Below are positions 3,198 to 37,814 of a DNA stretch of 64,000 nt, piece after piece. The stretch is from Marsupella aquatica (taxonomy: Eukaryota > Plantae > Marchantiophyta). The position numbers were made by a program, and so were the translations under genes. The stretch covers positions 434,001-498,000 of the forward strand of contig OZ316894.1 in NCBI GenBank assembly GCA_973895155.1, written 5' to 3'. The notes under the pieces were generated by a model. It saw only the letters and a program-made list of their open reading frames with translations. It ran no database searches and was not told where the DNA came from. Position 1 is the first letter of the stretch. The number at the start of each line of letters is the position of its first letter.

Positions 3198-3304
3198 TGT
3201 AGATAGGCAGTAATTCCAAAGTCATGAAGAAAACCGGAAAATTTTTAAATTTTTGAAGTAGTTAAACTATATTTGCTGATAACTCGAGTAAACTAAACCC
3301 TGCC

Positions 3305-3490
3305 GAAGATTAAGAGTTTAAGAGTTGAAGAGTTGAAGTGTTTAAGAGTTTACGGGTTTACGAGTAAACCCTACTTTAATAGTTTAAGAGTTTAAGAGTT
3401 GAAGAGTTGAAGTGTTTAATAGTTTAAGAGTTTAAAGGTTTACGAGTAAACCCTACTTTAAGACTTTACGACTTTAAGAGTTACGACTTG
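3305..3490 (+). repeat. Degenerate 9-bp tandem repeats (AAGAGTTTA/AAGAGTTGA) with a larger ~80-bp duplication
   Basis: Repeated ttaagagttt/gaagagttg; same motif recurs at ~12183-12248. Confidence 0.75.
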
Positions 3491-3685
3491 CGAACTGGCG
3501 AGCCCCGCGATTGTGACAGGCTACGGCTAACTCCAACGGGACTTTGCAACAAAACGAGGAGCAGGCCTTGAAGGGGGAGGAATCCAGAACATAGGCGCTC
3601 ACTCCTGACTTCTTTTCCGCTGCATCTTTCATCGCTCTCGACTCCAAACAATTCTTCGCGTAGCTCAGTGAGCAGAATTTGAGCT

Positions 3686-6100
3686 ATGGCTGACTTGAAC
3701 GCTGATGCACAGTATCGTGTTCAAACTCTGGCAATTCCTAAGAGTGTGGTCGCTCGAATTCCTTTGGCGCCCGACAGTTGTGAAAATTTGAGAACATCGT
3801 TACAGCAGCTCGGATTGGAACATCTACTCGCAATCCCTTGGAATGTGGAGCTCGACTCTTATTTACAGGATTTTGTGAGAGGATCACTGATTGCCCCTGA
3901 ATTTCGACAAACCATTCGAGCTCGGCCAAGTTTATGGACAGTTGAGCAAGTAGCTCATGCCTTCCGCTGCCCCTTAGATGGAGAAGGATTATATTCAAAG
4001 AAAAAAGATTTGTCCACTCCTTACTTTTCAGGGATTCGCCATCCTACCAATGGCTGGAATGTGACACAATGTACCTATCCGGATTTGAGGATTCTTTTAG
4101 AATTTCTAGTGCCCATTCTCCATCCGAAGAGACCAACTATCTGCCCTGTGGCATTGGCGAATACTATCGTAGCTTCTCACAGTGGAGCTATCCAAGTAAA
4201 TTGGGCGTTGTTACTTTTCAATGTGATGCACGATCAGGTGAGAAGTATGAAGGCAGGCAGACCTACTTGTCTACAAGTCTATCTATCTCAGCTGTATCAA
4301 GCACATGACTGTTTACATCCGGAGGAGAAAACAGAAAGGGGATTACTTCTGATCGAGTTGGACATTGAGGAAGAAATTAGTGTAGCAGAATCAGAACAGG
4401 ACATTCTGCTGAATTCCACTGATCAGGATGTTAATATGGACATCGATGTTAATATGGAGGATGTCTCGATAGGTGGTTCGGAATTTCCCCCTGAACACAA
4501 CATGGAGGTCATTTTATACTCTCCAAGAGAAATCAGTGGAGCAGATCAACTTGAAGCTGAAGGAGACGAGATTTTTCCTGAGCAACAAGAAGTCGTTGTT
4601 GAACCAACTATTACTGCCATACGAGGAGTCACCATGCCCCCTTTTTCGAAAGCAGAGTCAAATCAGCAGCTTATTGATAAGTTAATCTCTCTCTTCGGTT
4701 GCAGTGATGTTGAACTCTACGATGTTGTCTGTGATTTGAGATCCGAGGCAGTTAGCTTATCCTCTCCATTTCCAGATCAGCTAACCCCTGTCAGGACCGC
4801 TTCTCCCATTGAGAGGTCAGCACCAGAAGAATTTGTTGCTCTCACTCCTACTGTCCCACAGAATCTACCTCCAGAGCCAAGTGAACCTGTCTCAAGGATA
4901 GGAAACACAAGTTGTGTTGCAATTGTAACTGACCTACTGGAATTGCTTCAGTGTGAACCTGAGAAGATAATCTCTGTGGTTAGTGACTTAATTCCGAAGT
5001 ACACAGAATTCAAAGGCCCTTCCAACCCGGGTGACTGCATTTATAGTCCAGATTCCAATTATGAGCCAACCGAGGGACCTATTTATACCCAACCACAGTA
5101 TGAACATCCTTCTGTTAGACAGGATCTTCCTGAGGATTCTGATCCACCCTCTGATTTTGATTCCATCCGATCTTATGACAACTCTGTCGAGTCGTCACCA
5201 AGGCAAGGATTTGAGGATGTTGACACTACCTTAAGATCTGATCCAAATTTAGTGGCAGTTGTCACCTCCTCTACTCAAACACCCCGGTATTCTGTCATTG
5301 AGAAAAGATATACACGACATCCAGAGTCTCAAGTGCAGAGGTACGTGGAGACTTGTAAGATAATGCAGGCCAACAGACCCCCAATTGGAGAGTTTTGGAG
5401 ATACTACTACCTTAAGAAGACTGAGGCCAGTTACATATTTGACCTCAGAAGTTTCGGAACTTCAAGAGTGGAGATGGCTCAATTTGATGAGTTCTGGACT
5501 GACTCAATCTACTTCCGACCCATCCTTGCTATGATGCTACTTCAAGGGGATGTAGAAGTAGAAGATCCAGATTTGGTTTTGGCCTATTTCGGGAATTTTG
5601 CAGCTTACGCTCTGGACTTTGTGATTTCTTTTCTCATGCAGAGTAAGAAATCCACTTCTCACCAGAACTCTTACATTCCACGAGAGCCGAAGGTTGTCCT
5701 TGTTTCCACCAGTTCCCTAGCTGAGAAACAGAGGATCTGGAATAATGTCACTACTCAGACCCTGGCTCATTTCAACCGATATTTTAAAGATGTCAGATGG
5801 AGACTTCGACCCTTCTATTCCAGGATGATGAATAGTGATGAGTTTCTGCATCACTATCCCCAAGTATATGCTGCCACCTGCAACAACTATGATGTACTAG
5901 GGATATACAGAGAAGCTCTTCGTATAGATTCCTGTTATTTGATGAAGCGAATGCCTTTGATGTATCCTGAGAGACAACTAAGGTGCCTACCCTACTCTCG
6001 AGGATCACCACGTCAGACTGAGCTGATGGAGGTAACACAGAATCGGACTGTCACCTACGTGGAGCTGCTCGAATCCGATGATATTCGACAACAAGCTTGA
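3686..6100 (+). CDS. 804-aa accessory protein of cassette D; N-terminal plant-retrotransposon accessory-type domain, acidic/Pro-rich linker, unknown C-terminal domain
   Basis: Uninterrupted ORF; LGLEHLLAIPW...DFVRG...VAHAFRCP resembles the A and B ORFs. Confidence 0.75.
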   Translation: MADLNADAQYRVQTLAIPKSVVARIPLAPDSCENLRTSLQQLGLEHLLAIPWNVELDSYLQDFVRGSLIAPEFRQTIRARPSLWTVEQVAHAFRCPLDGEGLYSKKKDLSTPYFSGIRHPTNGWNVTQCTYPDLRILLEFLVPILHPKRPTICPVALANTIVASHSGAIQVNWALLLFNVMHDQVRSMKAGRPTCLQVYLSQLYQAHDCLHPEEKTERGLLLIELDIEEEISVAESEQDILLNSTDQDVNMDIDVNMEDVSIGGSEFPPEHNMEVILYSPREISGADQLEAEGDEIFPEQQEVVVEPTITAIRGVTMPPFSKAESNQQLIDKLISLFGCSDVELYDVVCDLRSEAVSLSSPFPDQLTPVRTASPIERSAPEEFVALTPTVPQNLPPEPSEPVSRIGNTSCVAIVTDLLELLQCEPEKIISVVSDLIPKYTEFKGPSNPGDCIYSPDSNYEPTEGPIYTQPQYEHPSVRQDLPEDSDPPSDFDSIRSYDNSVESSPRQGFEDVDTTLRSDPNLVAVVTSSTQTPRYSVIEKRYTRHPESQVQRYVETCKIMQANRPPIGEFWRYYYLKKTEASYIFDLRSFGTSRVEMAQFDEFWTDSIYFRPILAMMLLQGDVEVEDPDLVLAYFGNFAAYALDFVISFLMQSKKSTSHQNSYIPREPKVVLVSTSSLAEKQRIWNNVTTQTLAHFNRYFKDVRWRLRPFYSRMMNSDEFLHHYPQVYAATCNNYDVLGIYREALRIDSCYLMKRMPLMYPERQLRCLPYSRGSPRQTELMEVTQNRTVTYVELLESDDIRQQA

Positions 6101-6281
6101 AGGAGACTATCTTTTTAGCTAGTATTGAAAAGTATAGTACTTTTACCAATTTTTCTAAATGTGTTGTAGAGCTTTAAAAGCTATGAGACTTCTTTAGGCT
6201 GTAGTCTGTACCTAGGAAACCCTACTGGAAAAATTTCAGAGTTTTCCGAACCAGGAGTAGAAAGTTAAAAATAGTTGAATC

Positions 6282-6478
6282 TGTTGTAAACCCTAGTTTA
6301 CCCCTTAACCATAGGGCGAGAACCCTTAACCATAGTATGAGAACTCCTAACCATAGGACCAGTATAAGGGCATTTGCCTACCATGTAACCAAGGGGATAT
6401 ATATATCCCCTCATCAATAGTAATGGATCTATCTTGTTGGAGTATCTTTGAGTGTTCCTTTAGTTGTCTATTACAACA
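6282..6478 (+). repeat. 5' LTR of copia
   Basis: TGTTGTAA...TTACAACA; matches 11957-12153. Confidence 0.95.
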
Positions 6479-6492
6479 CGTTATCAGCACGA
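6479..6492 (+). promoter_or_regulatory. Primer binding site complementary to the anticodon arm of tRNA-Ile (half-molecule priming)
   Basis: CGTTATCAGCACGA directly after the LTR; complementary to UCGUGCU-IAU-AACG; this PBS type is described for the Bianca lineage. Confidence 0.75.
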
Positions 6493-6837
6493 GCCAGTCT
6501 CTAAAAATCATTTTTTTTCAAGCAGATGCAATCGAGTTTTACACGAGGAGAATGCTCGTAAAGTGGCATTTTTTTTAGAAACTGCCATAACCGTTTTTTT
6601 TCTTGGTCTCCATTCTTTTGCCTCAGAGTTGAATTTTTTTTACAAAACACGAAATTTCACATAGAGCATCAATTCGGGACCAGCATATCGAGAGTCCAAA
6701 GGACTAATACTTTATTGGCATGATTGAAAGCTCCCTCAGCTCCATATACAAGCTTCCAACCGGTCAATTGTACAATCGAGATACTTCACTCGATTCAATC
6801 TTCACCAAAGTTCTTAAACCAACTGACATCCCGAATA

Positions 6838-9800
6838 ATGAATACAGTCGAAAAATTATTATGGCCAGCACTTAAAGTCGACGGATCCAACTATTTGACG
6901 TGGATCACAGATGTCGAAACTTACTTTACATCACAAGACCTTGAAGACACCTTAGATATCGACATCGATGTCACGCTCAAACAAAAGGCTAAGGCAGCGT
7001 TTCTACTCAGGCAACATCTAACCCCTCAACTAAAGAATGAGTATATGAACGAAATTAATCCAAGAAAACTATGGGATCTCCTCAAAGCCCGATTTGATCA
7101 TATGAGGGAGATATGGCTCCCAGAGGCAAGAAGGGATTGGCATAACCTGCGCGTCATGGACCACACCACAATTGCCAATTACAATAGCGCACTGTGCAGA
7201 ATTACATCTCAATTAGAAATGTGTGGACATCCAATAAATGACATAGATAGAATCGATAAGACACTATCGACATTCCCTGAATCTAATATCACATTAGGTA
7301 CACAATATAGGAACATGCGTTTCACTAAGTACTCAGATCTGATTGCTCACTTACTTGTGGAAGAGAAGCAACAGATCGTGGCCTTGCAAAACGCCAGAAA
7401 GCGCCCAGCAGGATCAGACCCCCCACCACATCGACCTGAAACCCACTACACCAATTATGAAGACAAACAACGAGGAAATTACCGGGGCGGACGAACTCAA
7501 TTCAGAGGCGGAAGAAACCAATTCAGGGGCGGGAGAAATCAATTCAGAGGACAAGGCAAACCTTATAACCGACCCTCCGGATCCAATAACACGTGGCGCA
7601 GAGGCACCATGAATAATAGAGGAAGAGGACGAAGCAACCAATACGACACTGCAAACAATTCCCAGAAAATGTGTTACCGATGTGGCAAAATTGGCCACAT
7701 TAGAAACGCATGTGCAGCCACAGCACAAGAGGCCCACAGATACATAAACGACAGAAATAAGTCCAGACAAAACCCCCAAGGACATTATATGGAGATAGAA
7801 GAAGAATTGATTGCCTCTCAGAGAGAAGAAACACAAGAACAGATAGAAGTACATACCTCTCTTACTGACTGGAAATACCCGACATTAGACGACCCCGATA
7901 CGGGCATCATCGACAGCGGAACCTCACATACTATCTTAAAACACAGCAAGTATTTCGAGGCCATCACCCCATCATCCCGCGCTATCACCACCATAGCAGG
8001 ACTTAATCATATAGAAGAAGGCAAAGGACGAGCCACATTTATACTACCAGGAGGAACTAAAATCACCGTGAAGTCAGCAATTTATGCCCCGAAAGCAACC
8101 CGAAACCTCATCAGCTTCCAGGATATCAGATCCAATAACCTCCAACTGCGCACGAATACTCAGGGCAAAACAGAGACATTACAGATCATACAAGACATAC
8201 AGGGTAAGCCATCCATTAGAGAAACATTTGCATTGATCCCCCCAGGCCTATACGCAACCAGTATCCAAACATTCCATATACACCAAGAATCAGAGGATAT
8301 GACATACATCTGGCACTGTCGACTGGGCCACCCGGGTACCACTATGTACAACAGGATTATAAGGGACTCCAAAGGAATCCCCAAGACAGTCAAGCCAAAG
8401 GTAAAAACAGCCTGCATAGCGTGCTCACAAGGAAAAATGACCATACGACCATCAATACCAAAAACAATATTTTCAATACCACAGTTCCTAGAGCAGATCA
8501 ATGCAGATATCTGCGGACCTATAGACCCCCCGAGCGGCCCTTTCAAATATTTCCTGGTAATCATCGACTCATCAACTAAATGGCTGCAGATTTCATTGCT
8601 ATCTACCCGCAACTTGGCATTTGCGCGGATCTTAGCACATATTCTTAAATTAAGAGCACAGTTCCCAGAGTATCCTACAAGAAGATTAAGAGTAGATGGA
8701 GCTGGCGAGTTCACATCAAGAACATTCGACGACTTTTGCTGGGCAGCGGGCATCGATACTCAATATCCAGTTCCCCACGTTCATTTTCAGAACGGTATAG
8801 CTGAGTCGGTTATTAAGAGACTTCAAATGGTGGCAAGACCACTGTTAATGAAGTCAAACTTACCCACATCAGCATGGGGACATGCCATCCTTCACGCAGC
8901 TGCACTAATCCAATATAGACCGTCAGCATATAACTCTAAGACACCATACCACCTGGCGTTCGGCATACCACCGGACCTGTCCCACCTACGCATTTTCGGA
9001 TGCCAGGTAATGGTGCCTACCTTAGGACCAAAGAGAACAAAACTCGGACCCCAACGGAATGCAGGTATCTATGTTGGGTTTGACTCTACTTCGATCATTA
9101 GATACCTTGAACCGACTACGGCAGACCTGTTCAAGGCAAGACATCAGGACTGCCATTTTTATGAAGATCAATTCCCACAGCTCACGAATACAGCATCAAC
9201 ACAATCCAAGGACACAACGAAAATGCCCATAAATTGGAAAGCAGACCAAAACAGAAATGACCCCAGAACCAAGCAGGCAGACGAAGAAGTCAGAAGACTT
9301 CTCCACCTACATGAAATGCTCGAAAAGATTCCAGACTCATTTAACGACGCTGCAAATGTCACAAGATCCCACAACTTAGCAGCTAATGCGCCATCGCGAG
9401 TACAAACCTCCTCGACACCGGCCAATGTAACAGCCCCCAGAGCAAAGCGAGGCAGACCACCAGGGATCAAGGACTCCCAGCCTCGCCAACATAACACTCC
9501 AGCAGCAAACTTGGGTACACCCGCGCTGGAACCAGCGATCACACTTAACGTGACAGCGATAAATCAAAACGACCCACTGAGCGAAGAAAACGAGGAAATG
9601 TCAATCACATACATGCAAACAGGTAACATATATAAACGACCGACAACCCAAATTGATGAACAATTTGCCTATAACGTAATACAGGAAATCACCAACGATA
9701 TTCCTGATCCGCTCACTATAAACGAGGCAAAGAAACAACCAGATTGGCCAAAGTGGCAAGCAGCAATACATACCGAGATGGACGCCCTCATCAAGCGACA

Positions 9801-11448
9801 AGTATTCGGACCATTTAAAATGGCATTACCAGGTACACATTACACCGACTCTCGATTTACATTCTTGAAAAAACGAAATGAGAAAGGCATAGTAGTAAGA
9901 TATCGAGCCCGGCTAGTAGCCAAAGGCTACACACAAATCCCGGGCAGGGACTACGATTTAACATACTCACCAGTAATGGACGCTACTACATATCGCTATC
10001 TCACAGCACATTCAGTCCACCATAAACTGGTTAATAACCTTATGGACGTGGTAACCGCGTACCTTTACGGCACACTCGATACTGAGATATACATGACTGC
10101 CCCCCCGGAACTGATAGAGAGGGTCAAGCAGCACATTCAGGGGGAGACGTCCCAGAACCTGAATACAGAGATTAAAAAGGGCATCAGCCAAATAATACCT
10201 GATGGGGATACAAAGGCCCTCTTGATGCAAAGTGGAAATACACAGGCAATGCATACCAGAGGAAAGAAATTAACAACAAAACTTACAGTCCAAGTGTTAC
10301 GTTCCATCAACGGACTTAAACAGAGCGGCAGAATCTGGTATCAGAAATTCCAGACAGAGATGCTCGCCCTCGGATTTACAAATAGCGGACTGGCCCCCTG
10401 CATCTTCATCAAAAAGCATATGGACGAAGTCCTGATACTAGCACTGTACGTGGACGATGTGAACTTATTCGGGACTAAACAGATGATGAAAGACACAATA
10501 CATACACTGAAAGGAGTCTTCGAGATGAAGGACCTTGGAAGACCCAACCACTGCCTAGGCCTGCAGATCGAACACTTAGAAACAGGCATATTCCTTTACC
10601 AATCGACATACACGCAGAAGATACTTCATCAATTCAACATGCAGAAATCCTACCCTGTCTCCACCCCGATGGAACTCAGATCTCTAGACCCGATCAAAGA
10701 TATGTTTCGGAAGCGCCAAGAAGACGAACCCATACTGGGATCAGAAAAACCGTACCTATCAGCGGTGGGCGCCCTTATGTATCTAGCGAACCAGACGAGA
10801 CCTGACATATCGTTCGCCGTCAGTCTCTTAGCGAGACACAGCGCACAGCCCACCATCAGGCATTGGAACGGCATCAAGAGGATCATGAGATACCTACAAG
10901 GGACGATCGACCTTGGACTATTCTTTCCTAAGAATAGCCCCGATACGCTTACCGGTTACACTGATGCCGGCTACCTGTCGGACCCCCAGGACTCCAAATC
11001 ACAGACTGGGTACGTGTTCTTACAGGGGACGACAGCAATATCTTGGCGAAGTTCAAAGCAAACGATGACCACAACGTCATCCAACCACTCGGAAATCATA
11101 GCGTTATACGAGGCGTGCAGAGAAGCTGTATGGCTACGAAGCATTATCAATCATATTAGGTCCAGCACCGGTAAACCACAGATAACAGAGCCAACCACAA
11201 TCTACGAAGACAATAAGGCGTGTATCGACCAGATAACCAACGGAATCCTGAAGACCGAGAGGACCAAGCATATTGACCCCAAGTATTTCTTCACGCAAGA
11301 ACAACAAGGGAAAAGTATCAATGTTGCATGGATCAAATCTCAGGACAATCGAGCAGACATGTTTACGAAACCACTACCAGCCGGATTGCACAGAGCGCAC
11401 CTCGAAGGTATAGGCATGAGCAGATTGTCCACGATCAAGCCCACCTAA
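6838..11448 (+). CDS. gag-pol: Copia Gag-Pol polyprotein (gag, CCHC, PR, IN, RT, RNase H), single intact frame
   Basis: CYRCGKIGHIRNAC, IDSGTSHT, WHCRLGH...CIAC, ADICGP/RVDGAGEF/NGIAE, RLVAKGY, YVDD, YTDAG; first ATG at 6838. Confidence 0.95.
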   Translation: MNTVEKLLWPALKVDGSNYLTWITDVETYFTSQDLEDTLDIDIDVTLKQKAKAAFLLRQHLTPQLKNEYMNEINPRKLWDLLKARFDHMREIWLPEARRDWHNLRVMDHTTIANYNSALCRITSQLEMCGHPINDIDRIDKTLSTFPESNITLGTQYRNMRFTKYSDLIAHLLVEEKQQIVALQNARKRPAGSDPPPHRPETHYTNYEDKQRGNYRGGRTQFRGGRNQFRGGRNQFRGQGKPYNRPSGSNNTWRRGTMNNRGRGRSNQYDTANNSQKMCYRCGKIGHIRNACAATAQEAHRYINDRNKSRQNPQGHYMEIEEELIASQREETQEQIEVHTSLTDWKYPTLDDPDTGIIDSGTSHTILKHSKYFEAITPSSRAITTIAGLNHIEEGKGRATFILPGGTKITVKSAIYAPKATRNLISFQDIRSNNLQLRTNTQGKTETLQIIQDIQGKPSIRETFALIPPGLYATSIQTFHIHQESEDMTYIWHCRLGHPGTTMYNRIIRDSKGIPKTVKPKVKTACIACSQGKMTIRPSIPKTIFSIPQFLEQINADICGPIDPPSGPFKYFLVIIDSSTKWLQISLLSTRNLAFARILAHILKLRAQFPEYPTRRLRVDGAGEFTSRTFDDFCWAAGIDTQYPVPHVHFQNGIAESVIKRLQMVARPLLMKSNLPTSAWGHAILHAAALIQYRPSAYNSKTPYHLAFGIPPDLSHLRIFGCQVMVPTLGPKRTKLGPQRNAGIYVGFDSTSIIRYLEPTTADLFKARHQDCHFYEDQFPQLTNTASTQSKDTTKMPINWKADQNRNDPRTKQADEEVRRLLHLHEMLEKIPDSFNDAANVTRSHNLAANAPSRVQTSSTPANVTAPRAKRGRPPGIKDSQPRQHNTPAANLGTPALEPAITLNVTAINQNDPLSEENEEMSITYMQTGNIYKRPTTQIDEQFAYNVIQEITNDIPDPLTINEAKKQPDWPKWQAAIHTEMDALIKRQVFGPFKMALPGTHYTDSRFTFLKKRNEKGIVVRYRARLVAKGYTQIPGRDYDLTYSPVMDATTYRYLTAHSVHHKLVNNLMDVVTAYLYGTLDTEIYMTAPPELIERVKQHIQGETSQNLNTEIKKGISQIIPDGDTKALLMQSGNTQAMHTRGKKLTTKLTVQVLRSINGLKQSGRIWYQKFQTEMLALGFTNSGLAPCIFIKKHMDEVLILALYVDDVNLFGTKQMMKDTIHTLKGVFEMKDLGRPNHCLGLQIEHLETGIFLYQSTYTQKILHQFNMQKSYPVSTPMELRSLDPIKDMFRKRQEDEPILGSEKPYLSAVGALMYLANQTRPDISFAVSLLARHSAQPTIRHWNGIKRIMRYLQGTIDLGLFFPKNSPDTLTGYTDAGYLSDPQDSKSQTGYVFLQGTTAISWRSSKQTMTTTSSNHSEIIALYEACREAVWLRSIINHIRSSTGKPQITEPTTIYEDNKACIDQITNGILKTERTKHIDPKYFFTQEQQGKSINVAWIKSQDNRADMFTKPLPAGLHRAHLEGIGMSRLSTIKPT

Positions 11449-11956
11449 TAACACTGAAGCTCGAAAGGATTACCCAACGACGAAGCTGTCGCCCGATGAA
11501 GCCGCCTCCAGATGCCCGACCACCACACTCGGCGAGCGCCACACCACATCCCCGACGTGAAACAACGCAAACCAACGCAAAAACGCCCGACTTGGCCTCA
11601 CTAACCCAAAGCACAACACGAAGCGAAGCGCAATACGCAAAACGACATGAAGAACAACACGAGGCGCACACCAGGCAACGAGCTGAGGGGGAGACTAGAC
11701 ACCCATTAGGAACATTCACATAACCCCACTTAGCACATACGATCAACACTAACTAAGACATGGCAAAAAAGGCTTAACCAGGACATTAGATATGGGAAAC
11801 CACCTATATAAGTGATGGTAGCACTCTTTCCTCGAGAAGAAAGCGGCGAGGTTTTAATGAGGCTACATCACACAGGTGGACCCCTAAACCGGATTATACC
11901 CTAGGTTCAAGAGATGTGGTTACTTTATGCTCCTCCATAAACTAACCAAGGGGGAG

Positions 11957-12153
11957 TGTTGTAAACCCTAGTTTACCCCTTAACCATAGGGCGAGAACCC
12001 TTAACCATAGTATGAGAACTCCTAACCATAGGACCAGTATAAGGGCATTTGCCTACCATGTAACCAAGGGGATATATATATCCCCTCATCAATAGTAATG
12101 GATCTATCTTGTTGGAGTATCTTTGAGTGTTCCTTTAGTTGTCTATTACAACA
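11957..12153 (+). repeat. 3' LTR of copia
   Basis: Matches 6282-6478; preceded by PPT, followed by TSD. Confidence 0.95.
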
Positions 12154-13156
12154 GAATCTACTCAATTTTTAGTATACTGAAATTAAGAGTTTAAGAGTTT
12201 AAGTTTTTACGTTTTTAAGAGTTTAAGTTTTTAAGAGTTTAAGAGTTCATACTTAGCCATTTTTTCCGGCTTTCCACTTATTGAATCGTCGTTTTGACTT
12301 TTTGAGGGTTATGAAGAGGCATGTATCTTCGACCCTGTGACCTCTTATTCTGTAGTTCATCACTATTTATACCTCTTCCCCTAGTGTAGAGAGATGGTTA
12401 AGTTCTGCATTTTTGCCTCCCTTTTGTTAAGTCTATTGATTCTGAACCTACGAGTTCTAAATCAGACTTAATAATTGGAGAGACTTACCTCCTTCTTGTA
12501 TTTTGGAACCCAAATACTTGAAGTAAAACCTCAGTTATGAATCTCGTGAATTATAATGTCAGATTCCGCTTTGGTGACACATTATAATCTCACAAGTTCT
12601 TAGAGTTAACTCATTGAGTTTAAGTTACATTGGAAATGATGTTTTCACCTTCATGTTGCTTAGTACCATCTAAATGCTGAAGTATTTATCCTTTTAGATC
12701 TTGACTAAGTATCACTTAGGAAGAAAGGTCAAGACATGTTGCCGGCATTTTAAAAGGATACTCTAGTATGCAGTTTAGATCTGAAAAGCCGTGTGGATTT
12801 GAATTTCCTTAAAGTCATTCCATTATTACTTATGTCTAAGGAGTAACCTTGGTCTATTCCAGACTCCCTTAAGCATACTCTGAGAGATTTTTCCTTGTGT
12901 TTTGTTAATTGCAATCTTTTGCTTAATTGAAGGTTATCTGATGTTGAGTTATCATCAAAAACTACTCACCGCTGTGGAGCGATCTTCAAAGTACCTGATT
13001 AAAGTAATCAAGATTGATTACTATGTGTGACACAAGAGCTTAAAGCTTTGTTTTTAGTTTGTTACATCAAACCAACCCCATCTTGTTCTTAAAGGGAACG
13101 AATACCGAGTTTGGAGACTTTAAAATGTGATTTTTGGTTCTCTATGGCAAACTACA

Positions 13157-14984
13157 AGTCACAGCGGTGGTAGAATTGAAGCAGATGTTAGTAGAGGCCC
13201 CAGTCATGATAGCACCGGACTGGAACAAAGATTTTCATGTTTTTGTAGATGTCTCGGGCTTCTGTATTGGCTCAGTACTAAGTCAGTTGGATGAAAAAGG
13301 AAGGGACCATCCCATATACTTCGCAAGCCGTCAGCTTGCCGATGCCGAACGGAACTACTCTACCACAGAAAGAGAAGCATTAGGAGTCATTTATTCTTGT
13401 AAAAAGTTTAAGCATTATTTACTAGGGTACAAGGTAATCTTTCATACCGATCATGAAAGTTTGAAGTACCTAGTCAATAAGCCGGACCTTACAGGCAGAG
13501 TAGCAAGATGGATTTTGCTATTACAGGAGTTTGACTATGAGCTGAGAATCAAGCCGGGAAAGTTACATGCCAATGCCGACTTCTTTTCAAGGATCACAGG
13601 TAAACCTGCCACGGATTGCATCGATGATCGATTCCCCGACGAGGAGCTATTCGTTGTGGAAATAGCTGGTACATGGTACCCTGAGATTTTACAATTTCTC
13701 AGCACTTCCAGATTACAGCCAGGATTAAGCCGAGAGCAAGCCGCAGTCTTTGTGCGGAAGGTCAGACAGTATCAGTGCATTAAAGGCATACTGCACAAGC
13801 ATGGAATCAACGGCACGATTCAAAGATGTTTGGAAAAGAGAGAGGTAAAACGAGTCCTACGGGCCATGCATGGAGAGGAGGCCGGAGGACATTTTGCCCC
13901 AGTAACCACGTCTAAGAAGATATTAAATGCCGGTTACTGGTGGCCCACCTTGCACAAAGATGTCTATCAGTTTATCAAACAATGCGATCCTTGTCAACGA
14001 GCGGGAGGACCAAGGGCGTCCACCAGGCATCCACTGCACCCTATTCTACCTCTGGCACCATTTGAGAAGTGGGGTATTGATTACATTGGACCTCTGAAAC
14101 CACTGACCCACCCTCGACGGAACAAGTACATAATCCTGGCTACAGATTATGCAACTAAATGGGTAGAGGCCAGACCAACAATGAAGGATGATGCAATTAC
14201 TACGGCTAGATTCATGTATGAGCAGATCTTCACCAGGTATGGAGCACCCCTAGAATTAGTTAGTGATAGAGGAACCCATTTTTTGAATGATATAATTAGT
14301 CGTTTAAATGAGCAGTATTTAGTTAAACATAGGCCTACTACTCCCTACCATCCAAAGGCAAACGGGTTGACAGAACGAGCAAACGGAATTATAGGAAAGA
14401 TATTGAACAAAACAGTAGCGCAGAACAAACTTGATTGGGACGATAAATTGTTTGCTGCTGTTTTTGCTTACAATCTTGCCTATAAATCCACTACCGGTCA
14501 TACACCCTTCTTCTTAACCTTTGGACAAGAAGCCCTGGTACCCATGCAACTTGAGATACCGACATTTCAAGTTACAATTGAGGAAAGAGCCTCAGCGGAG
14601 GAGAGCCTAAAGGAGCGAGAATATAGGTTAGAAGCTTTAGAGGAAGCGAGAATGATTTCAGCCGAGAGAGTAGAATATAGACAGAATATCATGAAGCAGC
14701 AGTATGATAAAAAGTTGAAAGTAGTTAGTATTCATACCGGTGATCTTGTGCTACTTTATGACAGTAGGTATAGTAGGTTTCCAGGAAAGCTTTACACTCG
14801 CTGGTTAGGACCCTTTAGAGTAACCATGATGTTCCCCAATGGCTCCGTACAATTGGCCAACATTACGGGAGAGGTATATCCAGTTCGCATCCATTATGAC
14901 CGCCTCAAGAAATACTATATGGACGAAGATGAAGTTGTTCGCGAGGACGCTTCACAATTAAGTGGGGAGCTATGTGATGCCTAG
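13157..14984 (+). CDS. pol: Pol part 2 of A1: RNase H and integrase
   Basis: YSTTEREAL, HTDH; H...H...CDPC zinc finger; GIDY, SDRG, LTERAN triad; WLGPF; stop codon falls inside the LTR. Confidence 0.92.
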
Positions 14985-20007: not shown

Positions 20008-20015
20008 GTATAAAA
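20008..20015 (+). promoter_or_regulatory. Candidate TATA box ~105 bp upstream of the B ORF
   Basis: TATAAAAA; conserved in B2 (TTTTATA at ~35603-35609, minus strand). Confidence 0.5.
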
Positions 20016-20114
20016 AGGGGGCTGATCCTTTGCAGTGCACCAGTTCTTCAGACCATGCGCCAGCTTTGACCCCAGCTCGCTCGTTCATCCTTAGTCACCT
20101 GCTATCTCCTCTAA

Positions 20115-28500: not shown

Positions 28501-30377
28501 ACCGAGGGGTGCACTAAATACTAAGAGCCGAGGAACGGGGTGTCCTCCCGCCGAAGATTCGCTGACCAAGGTCCTAACTAAGCTGACAGTCAGGCCGGAA
28601 AACGGCTGTGTCTTATTAGAAGATCCTAATCTACGCAGGCTGGACAGCAGGGCAGCGCTGTACCTAAGGCAGGTGCCTGTCCCAAGAGCCTGACTAAGCC
28701 AATCCTAATCCTAATCTATTCCTACTCCGCCGCTAATGCCTGGCACGCTTGCCAGAGCCGCCCGAATGGGAACGGCCATCCCGCTGCCTTCGAAGCCTGT
28801 CATTGTCCGCTTTGAGGAGCTGGACCTGGTCCAGCAGAGATTCGTTCTCTCGCCTCGCCGCGTCCGTCTCCTCTGCTGCCTCCTGACATGCCTCCTCCAG
28901 CTGCTGGGCGTCGCTCGTCAGTTTACTCGCCAGCTGGTCCTGCTTCTCGGCCTCGGTTTGGAGCCGCGCCATCTCGGCCTGCAGAGTGGCTATCTCCGTC
29001 GCGTCCCGCTGGGCTCGCTCCTCGGCCTCCTCCAGGTCTTTCTGCCAGGTGACAGCTTGTTTCTTCAAACTGTCAATCTGGTTCCGGAGTCGTGTAATCT
29101 CGGCCTCGTTCCCAGCTTTGGCCTGTTTGGCTAGGGCGGTAAGAGTGTACGCCTTTGCTAACAACTCATCGGCGGCTGCAACCTTGGGTTGTAGTTGCAG
29201 AAGCTCAGCCTCTTGAGCCGCCACTTCGTTCTTTAGGTACACGGACTCCACCCGGTACCGCTCTATCCTCTGAAGGGCCTCCGACTGGGCCCGACCTGCC
29301 TTTACGGCGGCAACCAACTCCTGATTGAAGAAACAGGCTACCTTCCGGGCCATGAACTCCCCGGTATCCCGGGCAATTTGATGAGAGAAATCTCCCAGAA
29401 GCCCGTTCAGAAACGTACCCTGTACGAAGAGTTCCGGGTGGTCCAAGTTGTGCCTGTCCGGATTTGGGCACGGGCAGACATCAACACGCGCAGGGGCCGG
29501 GGCAGTGACGTCCAGCCCTGGGGACATAACGTTGGAAGGGGCCGGAGTGTCCTCCTGCAGCGATGTCCGGTTCTCCGGAATTGCCACCGGCGGGTCCTTG
29601 GGAGACCCGGGTTCGGGTAAGACCTATGCCGTACCAACTTATGTACTTAGCCTGGCTAGTTGGGTCGCATCAACGGTTGCGATGACCGACCCCTCCGGCG
29701 CCTCCTCGGTTACGATTACAGCTATTTTTGGAGGTGGGGTGGGTGAAGCTGGCGTGTCCACTGGACTTCGGGCCTCGGGTTGGGGCCGTCTCTCCAATGC
29801 CGGAAAAACCCACCTAGCTGGGACCAGCTTTGTAACGTTGATGCGGGGAAGGGTTCGTCGATCAAACCGGGCGTACCATGTGACGGGTACCCCGTCACGG
29901 GAAGTCACACATAACTGGTTGCAAAGGCCGATACCTTGTTAATAGTCAATGTAAATAAGCCATTTTTTAATTTTTAGTTAATTCCGTCATTATAGGTTGA
30001 TGATGCCCCAGGTGACTTTATATTCTTTCTCTCATAATAGTTCTAAGATTTGCGGCGACCTAAGTGGGCAAATATTTTGGGACCTTGAAACTAGCCAGGA
30101 CCAGCCCCATAGGACTTACCGTTTTGCTTCAAGAGCTATTGTTGAGACCCCCATTGCAAAGTCAGGAGAGGGGGGGGTTTTTTTTTAAATAAATCCCTCC
30201 TCAGGAGGGCGAGTCCCATTAGTGGCCGTCCGAGAGAAAGAGGGGCTGCCTCGCGAGCCCATAGGGCTGCGTGCCCGGGCGATTAATGGGGCTCCGCGAG
30301 CTGAAGGGGCTGCCTCGCGAGCCCATAGGGCTGCGTGCCCGGGCAATTAATGAGGCTCCGCGAGCTGAAGGAGCGCA

Positions 30378-30615
30378 AGCGAGCGGGGGGGGGGGGGAGT
30401 TAAAGGGCCTCCCGCAAGCTGGGAGGATCACGCGAGCGGGGGGGAGTTAAAGGGCCTCCCGCGAGCTGGGAGGATCACGCGAGCGGGGGGGAGTTAAAGG
30501 GCCTCCCGCGAGCTGGGAGGATCACGCGAGCGGGGGGGAGTTAAAGGGCCTCCCGCGAGCTGGGAGGATCACGCGAGCGGGGGGGAGTTGAAGGGCCTCC
30601 CGCGAGCCGGGAGGA
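30378..30615 (+). repeat. 47-bp tandem repeat, ~5 copies (preceded by a ~63-bp duplication at ~30242-30368)
   Basis: GCGAGCGGGGGGGAGTTAAAGGGCCTCCCGCGAGCTGGGAGGATCAC, period 47. Confidence 0.9.
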
Positions 30616-31037
30616 ATGGCCGCGCGCCCTGCATAGGGCCGCGCGCAGGAGGACGCAAGGGTAAGGCCCGAGAAATGGGCCGGGGCGCATGGCGAAGGCG
30701 CCAGGAGTTTTTTCGGTTCTATTTTTTTTCCTTCCTTTTTCTTTCCCTCTTCCTTTTGCACGACCCTCTCATTGCCGAAAGCAAAAACGGGGTTCTTCTC
30801 TCTCTTGCCGGAAGCTCTCTCCAGATTCTAATTATTTTTGAAGCTCTCTCTTTCATGGTGGATTAGTGGGGCTTGCTGGCGTCATTCTTCCAGGCATTAG
30901 TGGCGGCCGCACGGAGTAGTGACGGGAAATTGAGAGAATTTAAGTGATCGGGCTACGGGGGCTGTTTCGGGCCAGGGAATTGACATTGCCACGGGTGACG
31001 GGATTGGTGATTGAGAAATTGATTTCGGGATGCATGG

Positions 31038-32894
31038 ATGCTAGATCAACCAGAGTTTAGTGCGTCACGCATTCGGAGATACAAGGCTGCTTACCGTGAC
31101 TACGTGGAGACTCGGATTACACGGGAAAGGGAAGAGAGAGAAGTTATGATGAGCACGGGATTGGCAGCGGGTTCCTCACCGGTGGGTAGGAAGATTTTTC
31201 GTCGAATTTATCCCAAGACCTCCACCAAGGTGATGGAGGATTGTCGGAACATTTTCCAAGCCACCGGGCTTACAGAATTCATGAAGGTGGAGATTACCAT
31301 CCCTTCAGGGAAGAGCTGGGACATTGAGGCCGGGATGGAGTTCCGAACGGAGGGAATCTACTTTGAATGTCTCAAACGTGTAGTGCCCCATGTGGAGTTG
31401 GCTAAGCTATTGTTTCTTGAGAATCAGAAATTCTCATTCACACCTCGGAATATCAGGGGAGAACTCACGTTGAAAATGGTGGCCACTTGGGTGACCAATC
31501 CTACCTCCACCACCGCCATCCCTCTTTCTGCTGTCAAGCATGTTGAGTATAAGGGCTTCCTGGCCAAGGTGCATCAACGGGTTCTTGGCAACGTGCAATC
31601 CGGAGTGCTGAATGAGGAGCATTTCGTGGTAGCTATGGACATCAAGAACTACCCAGCCCATGTGTACGGATGGTGGTGCTACGGATTGAAGAAGCTATTG
31701 GCCGCTGAGCCCGGGAGTGTGAAACCAGGTGGGGCTGTACATTTGATGGGGTCATTTGTATTGGCCAGGGCAGAAGGGTTGATTGGTTCTCCGGGGCATG
31801 AAGACACGGGATCATCTCTCACCACGGAGATCCGGAGTATTGCCACTACCGTTTTAGGGAAGCTCACGGAGGAATCATTGTCTGCTGGTGGGGAGGATAA
31901 TAGAGAAGAAGAGAACCAGGAGGATGATTGCACATTGGAGTGGCTTGAATCACTCGTGGGAGATCCGAAACAGCCTCTGGAATACAACATTCCGGATGTT
32001 TACTTGGCAGAGCTACGGGATTTCAGAGAGGGAGTCCACGAGGGACTCAAGCTAGTCCACGCATTGAGGGAGTCTCTCAAGCACGCCACAGTCAAAGTAG
32101 AGACGTTAGAGCAGAGCATCCTGTCACTGAAGGAGGTGATCAAGACCAAGGAGCAGACCATTCATGAGAAGGTCAGGCACATCAATGCAGCTCACGTAGA
32201 GATCACCAACTTGAAGGGAGCTTTGTCCACCAAGGCCAAGGAAGCAGAAGAAGTAGGAGCGTTGAGGCAAGCATTGGCCAAAGAGAAGCAAAATTCTGGA
32301 GAAGTGATGGAGTGGAGGAACCAGGTGGGAGCACTACGGAGTCAGGTGGCAGCCTTTGAGACACGAGCGAAGAGAAGTGAGGCCCTGAGTCTAGGGAAAC
32401 GGAAGAGTCCCGGCACACCTGGCTCCACACTTTCCCCGGATGTGATCTCCCAAGCTATCGAGATGGTGGTGAAGGAGGTTAGTGGGAAGTATGGACCCTT
32501 GTTGGATGGAGCCAAGAAGAGTCAGGAGAAGAGTAAGAGCTTGGAGAAGAAGCTCCGGGAGGTACGGAAATCGTTACGGGAGGCTCAGGTCAGTACGGGG
32601 ATGCCACCCAGGTCTGACACCCCCGGGACTCCCATGGCCACGGGGCAAGTTCTACCGTTGGAGTTGCGGTCCGGAGAAGAGGCTACCCTCTGGAAGGACA
32701 CAATTGGTGAGGGGTACATCAAGGCGTGGCAGGCCTTGGCTGCTTTGAGGAAGCGCGGGAGCAGCAGCACTAAGAGTACTCCGTCGAAGAAGAAGAAAAG
32801 TACGGTGGCACTCACTCCCGTGAGTGATGAGGAGGAGGACCACTCACGGGGCACAAGTCCGGGCACCGAGAGCGAAGAAGAAGAGGAGGATTAG
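31038..32894 (+). CDS. 618-aa accessory protein of cassette C: globular N-terminus, coiled coil, basic/acidic tail
   Basis: Uninterrupted ORF; FQATGLTEF motif; heptad-rich region; KKKKS and EEEEED at the C-terminus. Confidence 0.75.
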   Translation: MLDQPEFSASRIRRYKAAYRDYVETRITREREEREVMMSTGLAAGSSPVGRKIFRRIYPKTSTKVMEDCRNIFQATGLTEFMKVEITIPSGKSWDIEAGMEFRTEGIYFECLKRVVPHVELAKLLFLENQKFSFTPRNIRGELTLKMVATWVTNPTSTTAIPLSAVKHVEYKGFLAKVHQRVLGNVQSGVLNEEHFVVAMDIKNYPAHVYGWWCYGLKKLLAAEPGSVKPGGAVHLMGSFVLARAEGLIGSPGHEDTGSSLTTEIRSIATTVLGKLTEESLSAGGEDNREEENQEDDCTLEWLESLVGDPKQPLEYNIPDVYLAELRDFREGVHEGLKLVHALRESLKHATVKVETLEQSILSLKEVIKTKEQTIHEKVRHINAAHVEITNLKGALSTKAKEAEEVGALRQALAKEKQNSGEVMEWRNQVGALRSQVAAFETRAKRSEALSLGKRKSPGTPGSTLSPDVISQAIEMVVKEVSGKYGPLLDGAKKSQEKSKSLEKKLREVRKSLREAQVSTGMPPRSDTPGTPMATGQVLPLELRSGEEATLWKDTIGEGYIKAWQALAALRKRGSSSTKSTPSKKKKSTVALTPVSDEEEDHSRGTSPGTESEEEEED

Positions 32895-35800
32895 ATAGGC
32901 GTACGGACGTGGGTGTACGGCCTCCAGATTTCCAACATTTTAGTGGGGGGTCACTCATGGGCTTGTTGGGATGAGCTCGCGGAGCTGATTCCAACAAGAG
33001 GCGGCGCTCCTCAAACGGAGCCAGGATGAGCAAGTTATGGCCTGGAGAACTTATGTTTTTGCGGTACGGAAACGGCCATAACTCAGGCGTCTGAAGTCCG
33101 TTGAGGGAGCGACTTAGTGATTCGGAAGCAGGAAAAGAAGAGCTATCCAGGGGTGAGCTCAGGTGTGCACTTGGAAGGGCACCTAGTTTCGGCCATTTTG
33201 GGGTGCCTCTCACTTTCAGGGTTCACGTGTACTGTTGGGGCGCCGTCGAAGGCACCGTCGGCCCCCTTGTTTTGGGTTTAGGGTTTTAGCAGCATGTGTG
33301 TGCCGCATGCTCCTCTTCAGTTTAAGGATTTCTCTTAGTGCAAGGTTTTAGCGGCGCCGCTAGGGTAGCCGCCACCGTTGTGACCCTGTGAGGGGTGCTT
33401 TGGTGTGATTTTTCAGTATTTAGGGGGATAGCCCCGAAGTAGTTAGGGGGACTCAGTGTGAAGTTAGCAAGGAGGGATAGAGTGGAGCCTGAGGAGTTTG
33501 AAAGCGTGTTCAGAGTAGTGAGGGGGAGCCATACTCATTGTCCGGAGAGGCAGGAGTTGAGTAGACGGCAGGAGGCCGGGTTACTCATGCAATGTGTATC
33601 GTTTTTCCCAAGAGATATGGATCTGTACATTTGACTTGATGGGCTTTTGTTGTGTGTTCCTTCTCCCTTTTTCGCTTTCCGAATTGTGTTCTCCCGTTCT
33701 ATGATTTGAAGAAACTTGCTTGGTTTGAGTCGGCCTTGTGAGTAGGGGTGGTGACAGCACTCTTTGGGTGACTCCGAGTGAAGGTGTAGTGGGGTAGTCG
33801 GCAGGACTTGATCAAAAGCTGTGGGGTGAGGGTAGTCGGTAGACTTGATCAAAACCTACATTTCCGGGAGCGGAAACCAAAATACTCATCCTGGTGTGAA
33901 AAGAATCCAAATAGCGTCCCTCCACGACCCCGTAATACGATACCAACGGTTTAAGCGAAGAAAAGTGCGGTTTGCACGTATTAACCGTTGGAGAGGCAAG
34001 TGACATACCACTCAAGAATGATTTCGATGTGGCTAGCGAAATACGCCTTCCCGCCAATGTACAGCGTCTTCCTTCGCCGCTCCATCTCTTCATGGAATTT
34101 CTTAGCGAAGTACGACGCCCATTTCCTAGGTCGATAGTTCTCGACCTGGATGACCTGGGCGGCGGAGATCTCCCCCCGGGGTTCCATCATGTGGAGAGCG
34201 TACCTCTGGAACTCCAGCCGCTCAGCTATCTCGGGCATGAGGCAGGTCCTCATCACGAACCCGTTGTCTACTGATCCCTCTGAGGGAAAACTTGAAGATT
34301 GGTACTTGGCCCCCTTGCCCCCGAGAGCCCGTGATTCGACTCGATGGTCACCTTCGGGTAACCCGAAGATCATCTTGAGCCGTTCTTCTGTGAGGGACAT
34401 ATTCCTTCCCCGCAGCCGAGTCTGTTGACGTACGTCGTCATAATTCTTGACGAATTCTGTCATGTCCTCCCCGTAGTACCTGCAAGTGTTCCAGGGGAGA
34501 GAGGCGAGGTGCTCAAATCCCTGAGTCTTCAGGTACACCGCATACTTGGGATGGAGGATGTTGCTGTGAACGTTTTCCCCCATGCGATGCATCGTTACCT
34601 TGGCTACGGCTACCGTGGCCAACGGTAACCCGGATGCACTGGCGGATTCCTTCCTCTTCTTTCCCCGTGACTGACTCGGGGAAGGTGATACTTCCCCATC
34701 CTCCCGATCGGGCCTGGGGAGTGCCACTGCGGTTGGTAACGGGCCCGGGGCGGCCACGGTCACCATGTTGTCTGCTGGGGCCGCTCCTGGGGTTAGAGCA
34801 GGGGGTGGGGACGATATAGTGTCGGCCCCCCGAGCGCTTGTTCCTCTGGGCCGCCTGGTCAAGGGTGGGGTAGCCTCGTCGTCATCGCTAAGATCCACAG
34901 CGTTGATGACGGAGCGTACCTGTGCTGGCTGGGTGATAGGTGGTGGGGTTTGGCTAGGCTGCGGCTGAGGCTGAAGCTGAAGCTGAGGTTGCATGGGCAC
35001 GGGTACGGGTACGGGCCCGGCTGAGTTGGTCATGTTGGTTGATGGCCGAGTTCCCATGAAGCTCTGTAGGTGCTGGTAGAAGTTCTCCGAAGCGAGTGCG
35101 GACGCCCTTGTCGAACGGTTGGTACTGGACTCGCCGTTAATGATAGCCCGAACCTGGGCAGGGATGTGGTCGAAGTGATGTCGCTGCAGGTCGATTGTAC
35201 CCGGGATATTGAAGACCTCATCCGGAAGCCGAAGCAATGCTTCCCAGAACCCGATATATTTGTCTCCGTTGAAGAAGTACCCAGATACCTCAGCTGGTCG
35301 GTAAAGCTCGCTCTGAGACGGGTAGTCAAAGTTAAGGACGTAGTGGTGTCGTCCTGCTAGGCGGATGGCTCTCTCGTATTCGCGTTCGATCTCGTATCGG
35401 CGCGGGTTGGCGTGTTTCAATTAATCGGCCAAGTGCCTTCCGGTAGATAGGAACTGCGTCCAAAATCGAATGGCCGAGCTGGAGAGGATCGTGTGCGACA
35501 TTCAGAGGAGATAGTAGTGGCGACCTAGAGAGAACGAGAGAGCTGGGGTCGAAGCTGGCGCGCGGACTGATGGACTGGTGCACTACAAAGGGTTGGCTCC
35601 CCTTTTATACTTTGAGGGCTTGTCGATCCCCGACGTCTCCTCGACGCCCATAGGTTGAACCGCTCACGCTTGTGGTGTACCGGCCACTCCGCCGGTCTGA
35701 GTCAGCGTGCGTCAGTGGCCGCTTCCTTAAGTTCGTTATACGGACCCGAGGGAGGGGCCCCTCCACGCTCGTAACCCGGGTGTGCGAATAGTGACCCGCC

Positions 35801-37814
35801 GCCAGCCCGAACCTGAAGTCCCCCTTATTGCCTAATGATGTCCTACCCCTAATGATTACCTAAATACTATCGTTATGCTAATAATAGCGGCCTAAGACCC
35901 ACCTAACGCGCGTGCCGAGCGCAGTTAGACTGAATCACTCATTAACCGCCGTACCGGTGGCGTCACAATTCACACAGGAGATCTTATATTACTTTATGAC
36001 AGTAGATATAGCAGGTTCCCAGGTAAACTTTACACTCGCTGGTTAGGACCCTTCAGGGTAAACATGAAGTTCTCCAATGGCTCCGTGCAATTGGCCAACA
36101 TTACTGGAGAAATATACCCAGTTTATTCACTACAGCCGCCTCAAGAAATACTATATGGACGAAGATGAAGTTGTTCGCGAGGACGCTTCACAATTAAGTG
36201 GGGAGCTATGTGATGCCTAGCCAGGAATCACTAGGCCAATTAAATGGTAAGGAGTGTACCTTGGAAACACCTTAGTATAGTAACAAAAAGATGGAAAATA
36301 TAAACAATTAAGGGTGACTATGGAACCCGAGCCAAGGCTGGAAGTAAGGACACCGAGGGAGGGAACACGATTAGGGTTAGGGCACGCTAAGTGCCGGCGG
36401 CTATGGGTAACCAACGGGAAGGAAGACCAGGCAATGAGGGGGGTAAGGACCGATCGCAAGGAATGGTGGCTCATTTGCAAGCACGAACTGAGCAGACGAC
36501 TACGGGAGGCCAAATACTGTCAACTGCTTAGGCAAGCACTCTGGGCGGGAACAGATACCGACGATCAACTCAAGGAGGGTATGAGCAACGTCAATCAAAC
36601 GGCACATGTTTGGGGATGCCTGTTCGAACGGGCAACTGAGTACATTGGGACCTACAAAGACCAAGAATCGGAGAGAGCAGCTCGACTGTGGGAGCTGCAG
36701 AAGTCTGCCTTCTTAGGAGGAGAACTCATCAAGGCTGAATTCCTCTGGACACCTACTGGCTACGAGCTGGACGACCTTCTGTTTTGCGAGAACAGAATCA
36801 TCGGCATCCGGGAAGCCATCAACCGCTGCAACGACGTACACTGGGAGTTGAAGGGTAGCACAGAGGGGTGGATGAAGGCAACCATGCTAGGAGAAACATC
36901 CACGGCAGCCGCTATGAAGAGGAAAGGGAACAACAACGAAGAGGCCACCCCGGCAAAAAGAACGAGGTCGGCGGCACCAAGGAAGCCAGTTGAGCAGGGG
37001 AGCAAGAGGCAGGCAGAAGCCGAAGAGGAGGAGGCCGACCCCATCAATGTTGTTCCAACAAGAGATGACACCTGGAAAGGCTGGGCGGCGACCCTCTCCG
37101 AGGAAGTGCAATTACACTTTGCACGTGAAGAGGATGCATGCTTGACGGCTATGTAGACTCGGAAGTACCAGGGCTTCATGGCCGGATCCGGCTTGGAAGC
37201 CTTTGTGAAATTACCATGGCTGAAGCTGGAGGTGCCAGATTCAGACTTATTAGAATTCATGGGATCATGGGATCCCGAGACAAATTCCATAAGAGTGTAC
37301 GGGAAGGATTTCTATCTCACTCCCCGGGTGATTGCCGAAGCGTTTGGCTTGCCGATGGGCAATAAGACCAAAGTAGATACCAGGAAGACCTTGCCTGACA
37401 AGGAGTTTTGGTCATTCCCAGGGCCATCAACGAAGAATGGCTTCTTCCGGAACACCTGCACCAACCCGCACATTGGGGAGATGATCGACTTCTTGCGGGT
37501 AACCATGCATTGCAACTTGCCGAGGCCAGAGATTGGCAAGGCACAGGTTTACTTGGCGGAGAAGCCAGACCCCAAGCCGGGACTACAACGGATACCTCCT
37601 CACCCAATTGAAGAAAATCTTGAAGGAGGAACAGCAGGTGATCGGCAAGGGAAGCGTTCATTGTGTTACTCCAATCCTTTTTCTTTTTATCCCATTTCAT
37701 TCACTCTTGCTTCGACTATGTGACTCTTTTTCATTCACACTAAACTAAATTTTATAGTGTGCATGCAAGGAGAGTGTACACACACATTCCCCCTTGGTAC
37801 CCACCATTTTTTAC

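Follow-up and report, generated by a model that had tools for sequence, protein, structure and literature searches.

Introduction

Extra open reading frames (ORFs) of plant retrotransposons with long terminal repeats (LTRs) are placed, in the published extracts cited here, in the internal region, upstream or downstream of gag-pol (PMC7264820, PMC6317226, PMC11963269, PMC11728184, PMC12885004). The closest described systems are the Athila elements, gypsy retrotransposons without a chromodomain, of which some, such as sunflower Athila 14, carry a 3' extra ORF with an ATHILA (PF03078) or Transposase_32 (PF20167) domain (PMC11728184; PMC6317226). This domain is reported to be predicted to form pentamers via coiled coils (PMC13547354). 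The function of such ORFs is described as an open question (PMC7264820), and whether their proteins alter the methylation of the element as still to be investigated (PMC12844716). Here we analysed a stretch of 64,000 nucleotides from the liverwort Marsupella aquatica (contig OZ316894.1, positions 434,001 to 498,000; "the window"), in which nested retroelements fill the first 38 kb. They include a gypsy family, A, which like Athila lacks a chromodomain and which carries an accessory gene inside its LTR, and three further kinds of gene-bearing unit, B, C and D, which are probably solo LTRs.

Two other systems bear on this arrangement. VANC proteins are reported to bind motifs of 8-9 bases in tandem repeats of the non-coding DNA of their own element (PMC5735166). 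In mouse mammary tumour virus (MMTV), the accessory gene sag lies in the U3 part of the LTR and hence in both LTRs, and solo LTRs exist, according to the section cited (PMC12548423); sag provides the established precedent of a U3-borne gene. Among the titles and abstracts searched we found no plant LTR with a whole accessory gene; subscription journals were sparse in that search, and supplement tables could hold cases.

Results

The accessory gene of family A lies inside the LTR

Unit ends, target-site duplications (TSDs) and junctions were read from the window sequence, and contigs from the public runs X1, X2, X4 and X5 were compared with them. The features of family A are as follows (RT, reverse transcriptase; PPT, polypurine tract).

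132..3197, plus strand: left part of the A1 gypsy element, with gag (zinc knuckle), a protease-like stretch and RT; cut by D1
13162..14984, plus strand: A1 RNase H and integrase by Pfam, with no match to a chromodomain or a second RNase H
14960..14969, plus strand: A1 PPT, 3 bases upstream of the LTR start
14973..19530, plus strand: A1 3' LTR, ~4558 bp; start established, end placed by likeness to the B1 end
15088..18720, plus strand: reading frame of the A1 accessory gene, within the LTR; 675 aa, a stop at 17113-17115, then 534 aa
15895-16494, plus strand: A1 shared domain, within the accessory frame, which also has a coiled coil
23618..25502, minus strand: A2 LTR copy with the ORF start and the domain; adjoins pol interior
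25503..36208, plus strand: A3 RT-RNase H-integrase, interrupted by B2
36196-36209, plus strand: A3 PPT junction, the same as that of A1
36209..37657, plus strand: A3 3' LTR, truncated past most of the shared domain

In A1, gag, RT, RNase H, integrase and the PPT follow one another and are succeeded by the TG at 14973. The ATG of the family A accessory gene lies 115 bp inside this PPT/LTR boundary, and a TATAAA is found at 15067, 95 bp into the LTR. The PPT-to-TG junction is identical in A1 and A3, and the PPT is upstream of the ORF in both. The left end of A2 is the same TG, but here it meets a different flank with the ORF still attached; A2 resembles A1 at 85% over 1.9 kb, and the likeness ends at the TSD of B1. 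A further flank is joined to this A base in contigs of X1 and X2 (joint 35282 to 36209). The shared PPT-TG junction, together with the start of A2 at the same base in another flank, places the accessory gene within the family A LTR, a conclusion that we hold with near certainty. The gene-bearing LTR proposed in a preliminary description of this DNA is thereby established for family A.

The ORF of family A does not occupy the position between pol and the 3' LTR that is typical of plant 3' extra ORFs. Athila extra ORFs are stated to lie normally in that position (PMC7264820), and the 5' LTR of A1, like the TSD of family A itself, falls outside the window, so the A ORF could in principle be an ordinary internal extra ORF with the LTR start misplaced. 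Against this, two copies have the PPT ahead of the ORF, and A2, in an unrelated flank, starts from that same TG and still carries the ORF, which makes this alternative extremely improbable.

The right end of the A1 LTR was set at 19530 because its last 200 bp align with the 3' end of B1, at a score that exceeded all 500 resamples. When B2 and C were aligned in this way, their scores were reached by 7 and 8 of 500 resamples, and the alignment with the D end was at chance level. A, B1 and C have in common a short motif that lies 150-185 bp before their 3' ends, and the D ends lack the motif common to A, B and C. The 111 bases between the placed A1 end and B1 (19531-19641) do not match the A1 LTR; their depth is LTR-like in each of the four runs, and they include a 10-bp stretch that repeats the A1 end in inverted form.

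Family A has the gene order of Athila (Gag, protease, RT, RNase H, integrase), with neither a chromodomain nor an archaeal-type RNase H as judged by Pfam only, and its RT is one that we take to be Athila-like. Neither a tRNA primer site nor a self-priming sequence was found in the sequence after the A2 end.

Units B, C and D are gene-bearing insertions

The preliminary description listed D1, B1, B2 and C as TG...CA cassettes of about 4 kb with one long ORF in the same orientation. The junctions confirm units of 3.98-4.13 kb with 5-bp TSDs, which have no RT or integrase (Pfam on the scanned ORFs) and no internal LTR pair. The orientation is common to B1, C and D1, whereas B2 lies on the minus strand; a single long ORF is present in C (618 aa) and D1 (804 aa), whereas the frame is disrupted in B1 and B2, and in A1 by the stop.

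19642..23617, plus strand: B1, TGTGAC...GTGACA, TSD TCTGC, 3976 bp, decayed ORF
21002-21619, plus strand: B1 shared domain
27836..35967, minus strand: B2, TSD ATTCA, 4000 bp without C, ~76-78% identical to B1
34002-34604, minus strand: B2 shared domain, cut by C
29879..34005, plus strand: C, TGTGAC...GTGACA, TSD TACCA, 4127 bp, sited inside B2; young multi-copy family
30241..30615, plus strand: CpG-rich tandem arrays of C (64 bp x2, 47 bp x4.8), upstream of the ORF
31038..32894, plus strand: C ORF, 618 aa, unbroken, with coiled coil and basic cluster
3198..13156, plus strand: D1, TGTAG...CTACA, TSD AGTCA (3193-3197, 13157-13161), 4082 bp without the nested copia
3310..3447, plus strand: D1 upstream array of the 8-bp motif TTAAGAGT, ~17 copies by TRF, candidate binding sites
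3686..6100, plus strand: D1 ORF, 804 aa, unbroken, without coiled coil
~3734-4399, plus strand: D1 shared domain, within the 804-aa ORF
6282..12153, plus strand: full-length copia element nested in D1, TSD GAATC, separate from the unit
12183..12247, plus strand: second array of this 8-bp motif in D1, downstream, ~8 copies

B1 adjoins the minus-strand LTR copy A2. Its frame has several stops and frameshifts, and that of B2 has stops and is cut by C; a TATAAA lies 368 bp from the B1 start. Contigs in which the flanks are joined without B2 were found in X1 and X4, and without C in all four runs, so both are true insertions. B is closest to A in protein (24-28% identity) and in 3' end, and from this likeness B is very probably a solo LTR. 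The B frame also has an extra N-terminal segment of ~120 aa (35420-35058 on the minus strand, and 20220-20640) for which Pfam gave no match and which does not begin with an in-frame ATG; its translation may depend on an exon upstream or on a different start.

The C contigs of young copies begin exactly at 29879 and end exactly at 34005. In X1, six C contigs (289-483 bases, exact or with one mismatch) have depths of 1524-1599, compared to 16.5 in a contig specific to B1 and 12-23 in contigs with a single flank. From this ratio to single-copy contigs, and with contig depth as a rough guide only, the C family has roughly 100 near-identical copies in X1. The depth of C is 11087 versus 76 in X2, and only 35-69 in X5. 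Among the 24 listed contigs that run past the C 3' end, 21 have varied flanks and three share a common flank, one in X1 and two in X4, the X4 pair ending after ~11-13 letters. The X1 contig carries, 20 bases from the terminal CA, a T run and TGGCGCCG, which presumably resembles a tRNA-Asp primer site. tRNA-Asp is given as the main Athila primer, at 72% (PMC6317226). We take the recurring flank, known over 30 letters only, to be where an internal region with its primer site begins, and C is on this reading probably a solo LTR. The depth just past the C 3' end is explicable by random flanks sharing 1-2 letters and was not used.

The known extent of this flank also leaves room for B, C or D to be solo LTRs of LARD-like non-autonomous elements, that is, two LTRs around a non-coding interior, which would borrow an A-like gag-pol and supply the accessory protein. 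The only pol genes seen in the window are those of family A and of copia, which speaks for such an origin. Family A is, on the other side, autonomous in layout, and the low identity between the B and A proteins fits a long separate history; we consider the LARD-like origin rather improbable. All four insertions are single units, and the near-identical C copies in X1 are many, so that, should a large share be solo LTRs, these would have to form quickly. Both points favour a reading in which C, and perhaps B and D, moves as a single TG...CA unit without an interior, for example through a one-LTR intermediate and a helper integrase. We regard such movement as very unlikely: tRNA-primed reverse transcription requires two LTRs, and in two runs C is followed by an unvarying flank that includes a primer-like motif. 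Long LTRs are also reported to favour solo formation (PMC7251063, citing Du 2012).

D1 interrupts the pol of A1. The most frequent 8-mer of D1 occurs 12 times, compared to at most 5 times in 100 resamples, and no TATAAA was found in C or D. The nested copia element, sited just after the D1 ORF, has 197-bp LTRs that are 100% identical and one unbroken 1536-aa polyprotein, and was inserted very recently. A second D-like 3' end (50154-50799, minus strand) matches D1 at 82% and has the same CTACA end in another flank; on its 5' side it is cut near the end of a long interspersed nuclear element (LINE). The basis of the solo-LTR reading given in the preliminary description differs between units: likeness to A for B, the recurring 3' flank, weak to moderate as evidence, for C, and parsimony alone for D, which we likewise judge to be a probable solo LTR.

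A shared domain is under purifying selection in A and B

The preliminary description had proposed one accessory protein family for A, B, C and D. We scored the domains pairwise against 2000 shuffles; the motifs that it had pointed out guided the choice, by eye, of the domain limits. A domain of ~190 aa is common to A, B and D, with scores that none of the shuffles reached (z 29-37 for A-B and ~11 for A-D and B-D; overall 10.6-36.9), whereas the C protein scored at chance level against all of them (z -0.8 to 0.5). Searched against 1.84 billion representatives, a profile built on five copies of A, B and D retrieved 175 proteins. From the 150 hits listed, 119 were taken to rebuild the profile, which then gave 114 bits for A, 142 and 163 for B and 219 for D, values that are partly circular. 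C obtained 4.6 bits, in the first motif only, compared to at most 2.5 in 500 shuffles, and an hhalign probability of 0.4% against the family. The family is thus established for A, B and D; for the C protein we lean modestly towards homology with the domain.

Of the 20 related proteins looked up, five carry a species name, four from Calypogeia fissa and one from Riccia sorocarpa; in these two liverworts the entries are annotated as unnamed or hypothetical proteins. In a quick tree of 111 rows (the four window domains and 107 hit segments of at least 150 aa), A and B group with the named liverwort proteins, and D falls in a separate group of 66 rows with support 100. This suggests that D likely rides another element lineage, in keeping with its different ends. 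A homologue search with the D protein gave one relative, at 83%, and a search with the C protein gave none at near length or shorter, longer proteins not having been searched. The C-terminal 300 aa of the D protein (5150-6097) are aromatic-rich and well kept in the relative P0001, with no Pfam match, and are possibly a second domain that replaces the coiled coil.

The ratio of nonsynonymous to synonymous substitution rates (dN/dS) was obtained for the A and B pairs, C and D being without a second coding copy in the window. In the domain it was 0.10 (A1/A3), 0.13 (A1/A2) and 0.07 (B1/B2, at a dS of ~2, near saturation), compared to 0.11 for pol and 1.7 and 2.1 for shifted frames. Elsewhere it was 0.32-0.37 in the A N-terminus, 0.13 in the B N-terminal segment and 0.18 in the B coiled coil, values that likewise point to constraint. 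The A and B domain is under purifying selection as strong as that on pol, indicating that the gene was needed while the A and B families replicated.

As stated in the preliminary description, the A, B and C proteins have a coiled coil, here called by a home-made heptad rule, and basic clusters, and none has an obvious transmembrane helix. A coiled coil is also present in 28 of the 44 hits of at least 450 aa. In 19-residue windows the highest hydropathy was 0.7-1.5 across the proteins (top value 1.53, in D), below the transmembrane threshold of 1.6. An env-like role for the accessory protein was rejected, as there is no hydrophobic (transmembrane) helix.

The D domain model ranks VANC21 first among solved structures

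A model of the D domain was built from an alignment of 103 of the 150 listed hits and the four window domains (107 members) and had a pLDDT of 94.4. In a wide structural search of 48,161 chains, the model had the VANC21-DNA structure 9lnk_A as its first match (Z 6.9, rmsd 4.2, 200 of 235 residues), and the runner-up reached Z 4.1 over 60 residues. The predicted match to VANC21 stands apart and spans the domain. Foldseek gave no match at E<=0.001 in the PDB or viral models; on re-examination its PDB rows had no Z of at least 2, and VANC21 was seen only in the wide search. A profile search of PDB sequences returned coiled coils only.

The likeness to Transposase_32 and ATHILA suggested earlier is found in relatives, with nine of the 107 alignment members matching Transposase_32 (E<=0.05, best E 1.6e-7), so that the window proteins would be kin lying beyond the reach of the Pfam model. 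Atlas rows below 0.9, which are leads only, connect C to ATHILA and Transposase_32 clusters (0.84); rows for a Calypogeia relative, again leads only, include DUF1985 and the plant mobile domain (PMD) at ranks 14 and 20. Collectively, these results suggest that the A/B/D domain is quite likely a fold relative of VANC, PMD and Transposase_32.

In D, arrays of the 8-bp motif flank the ORF to left and right; the CpG-rich arrays of C lie upstream of the reading frame. An anti-silencing role had been mentioned in the preliminary description as speculation; the modelled match to VANC21 now offers a structural lead to it, and we hold the odds on anti-silencing as the protein's function to be even. The same layout could serve another job, such as integration tethering, activation of the LTR promoter or particle assembly, with silencing untouched. 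In line with such a job, four of the units are inserted within other retroelements and A and B have no motif arrays. A fold alone shows no function either, MAIN/MAIL being described in the cited preprint as opposing Polycomb at genes, with direct DNA binding unproven (10.1101/2024.09.27.615353). Nesting is, however, commonplace in repeat-rich DNA, the sole solved structural match is a DNA-bound anti-silencing factor, and D and C have VANC-style arrays, so we regard another job as unlikely, if clearly worth keeping in mind.

Other features of the window

Outside the nested retroelements described above, a 405-aa ORF at 45252-46469 (minus strand) has a weak protein kinase match (E 0.002) and is one that we assume to be Crinkler-like from its look. 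ORFs at 39621-42987 have no Pfam match and are presumably DNA transposon pieces with likeness to KDZ/EnSpm-type transposases. A decayed L1-type LINE occupies 51072-56529 (minus strand), and fragments of a copia gag and of a Ulp1 protease (Peptidase_C48, E 1e-11) lie at 60191-60652 and 61510-61983 (minus strand). Repeats comprise a direct repeat pair spaced by 894 bp around 60-bp repeats (47449-48821), a 121-bp tandem array (57924-58600) and a 40/119-bp array (62730-63077). Metagenome contigs were scanned for related loci, with 137 pattern matches and none confirmed.

Discussion

The explanation that we favour, with modest confidence, is that family A carries its gene in the LTR, that B1, B2, C and D1 are likely solo LTRs of other elements of this design, and that the domain common to A, B and D has a predicted VANC-like fold and would serve as a nuclear, sequence-specific DNA-binding factor against silencing. 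The place of the gene, the integrase-type unit ends and TSDs, the A/B/D kinship and the selection on A and B are observed; from the promoter onward the steps are conditional. The gene in U3 would have its own promoter at the left edge of the LTR (TATAAA 95 bp in for A, ~360 bp for B). Reverse transcription would copy a gene in U3 into both LTRs at every round, and recombination between the two 4-kb LTRs would delete gag-pol and leave one whole gene between TSDs. Oligomers of the protein would form through the coiled coil, while short motifs in the non-coding DNA of the family would be recognised by the domain. By holding off methylation, as VANC does, the protein would let its own family escape silencing. 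A wider proposal, that several liverwort lineages moved a VANC-like anti-silencing gene into the LTR and that hundreds of solo LTRs act in trans so that their family stays active, is tentative and, in our judgement, less likely than not.

Several observations weigh against this explanation. On the side of the elements, no gag-pol bordered by B, C or D was observed in the window, and the LTR-to-pol depth, above 2 in most bins of X1, X2 and X4, is reversed in X5. The recurring C flank, for which no depth is given, appears in three of the 24 listed contigs and may be a common site of insertion; the primer-like motif lies 20 bases out, compared to the usual 0-5 in the cited survey (PMC6317226). 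On the side of the protein, the kinship of C to the A/B/D domain is not established, and the single-sequence model of C (pLDDT 31.5) is too poor for a structure search. D stands apart in the tree and has neither coiled coil nor basic cluster. The Z score for VANC21 falls in a range, below 8, that is common among unrelated folds according to the search tool, at 10% identity. The window proteins have no direct match to Pfam Transposase_32 (PF20167) or ATHILA (PF03078) up to E 1 and E 10, and the non-coding DNA of A and B has no enriched 8-mer.

If the wider proposal is true, a complete gene, along with its promoter and target motifs, survives solo-LTR formation, the host's main deletion route, and this would be the first such anti-silencing system in LTR retrotransposons. 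Solo LTRs from which the gene is expressed would not be inert remnants. Gene-bearing solo LTRs also resemble host genes, which is a warning for annotation. The D and C arrays are candidate targets and make the anti-silencing question directly testable.

The MMTV precedent concerns an animal retrovirus and an unrelated protein, a superantigen. Its LTR is, we believe, much shorter than the unit LTRs here. PMD proteins (MAIN/MAIL; Ogre PMD) are reported structural kin of VANC (PMC13547354; 10.1101/2024.09.27.615353). The link to them here is an Atlas lead of 0.85 for a relative; PMDs differ in being host genes or internal extra ORFs, and there is no direct Pfam match. VANC21 and VANC6 of the VANDAL Mu-like elements (PMC5735166; PDB 9lnk) provide the best structural match, predicted over nearly the whole D domain, and have a coiled coil, as A, B and C do, and tandem arrays of short motifs in non-coding DNA, to which the candidate arrays of D and C compare. 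In contrast, VANC comes from eudicot DNA transposons and the gene here from a gypsy LTR, the low identity and Z score are those given above, and A and B are without arrays. With Athila, as described in the extracts cited, the likeness lies in the 5-bp TSD (here of B, C and D; 4 bp is given for Phygy and Selgy, PMC6317226), in a sense extra ORF after pol, and in a protein with a Transposase_32-related domain, helical extensions and predicted nuclear signals. The difference lies in the place of the gene: the Athila ORF is internal, present in one copy per element and lost when a solo LTR forms, whereas the gene described here is found beyond the PPT, within the LTR.

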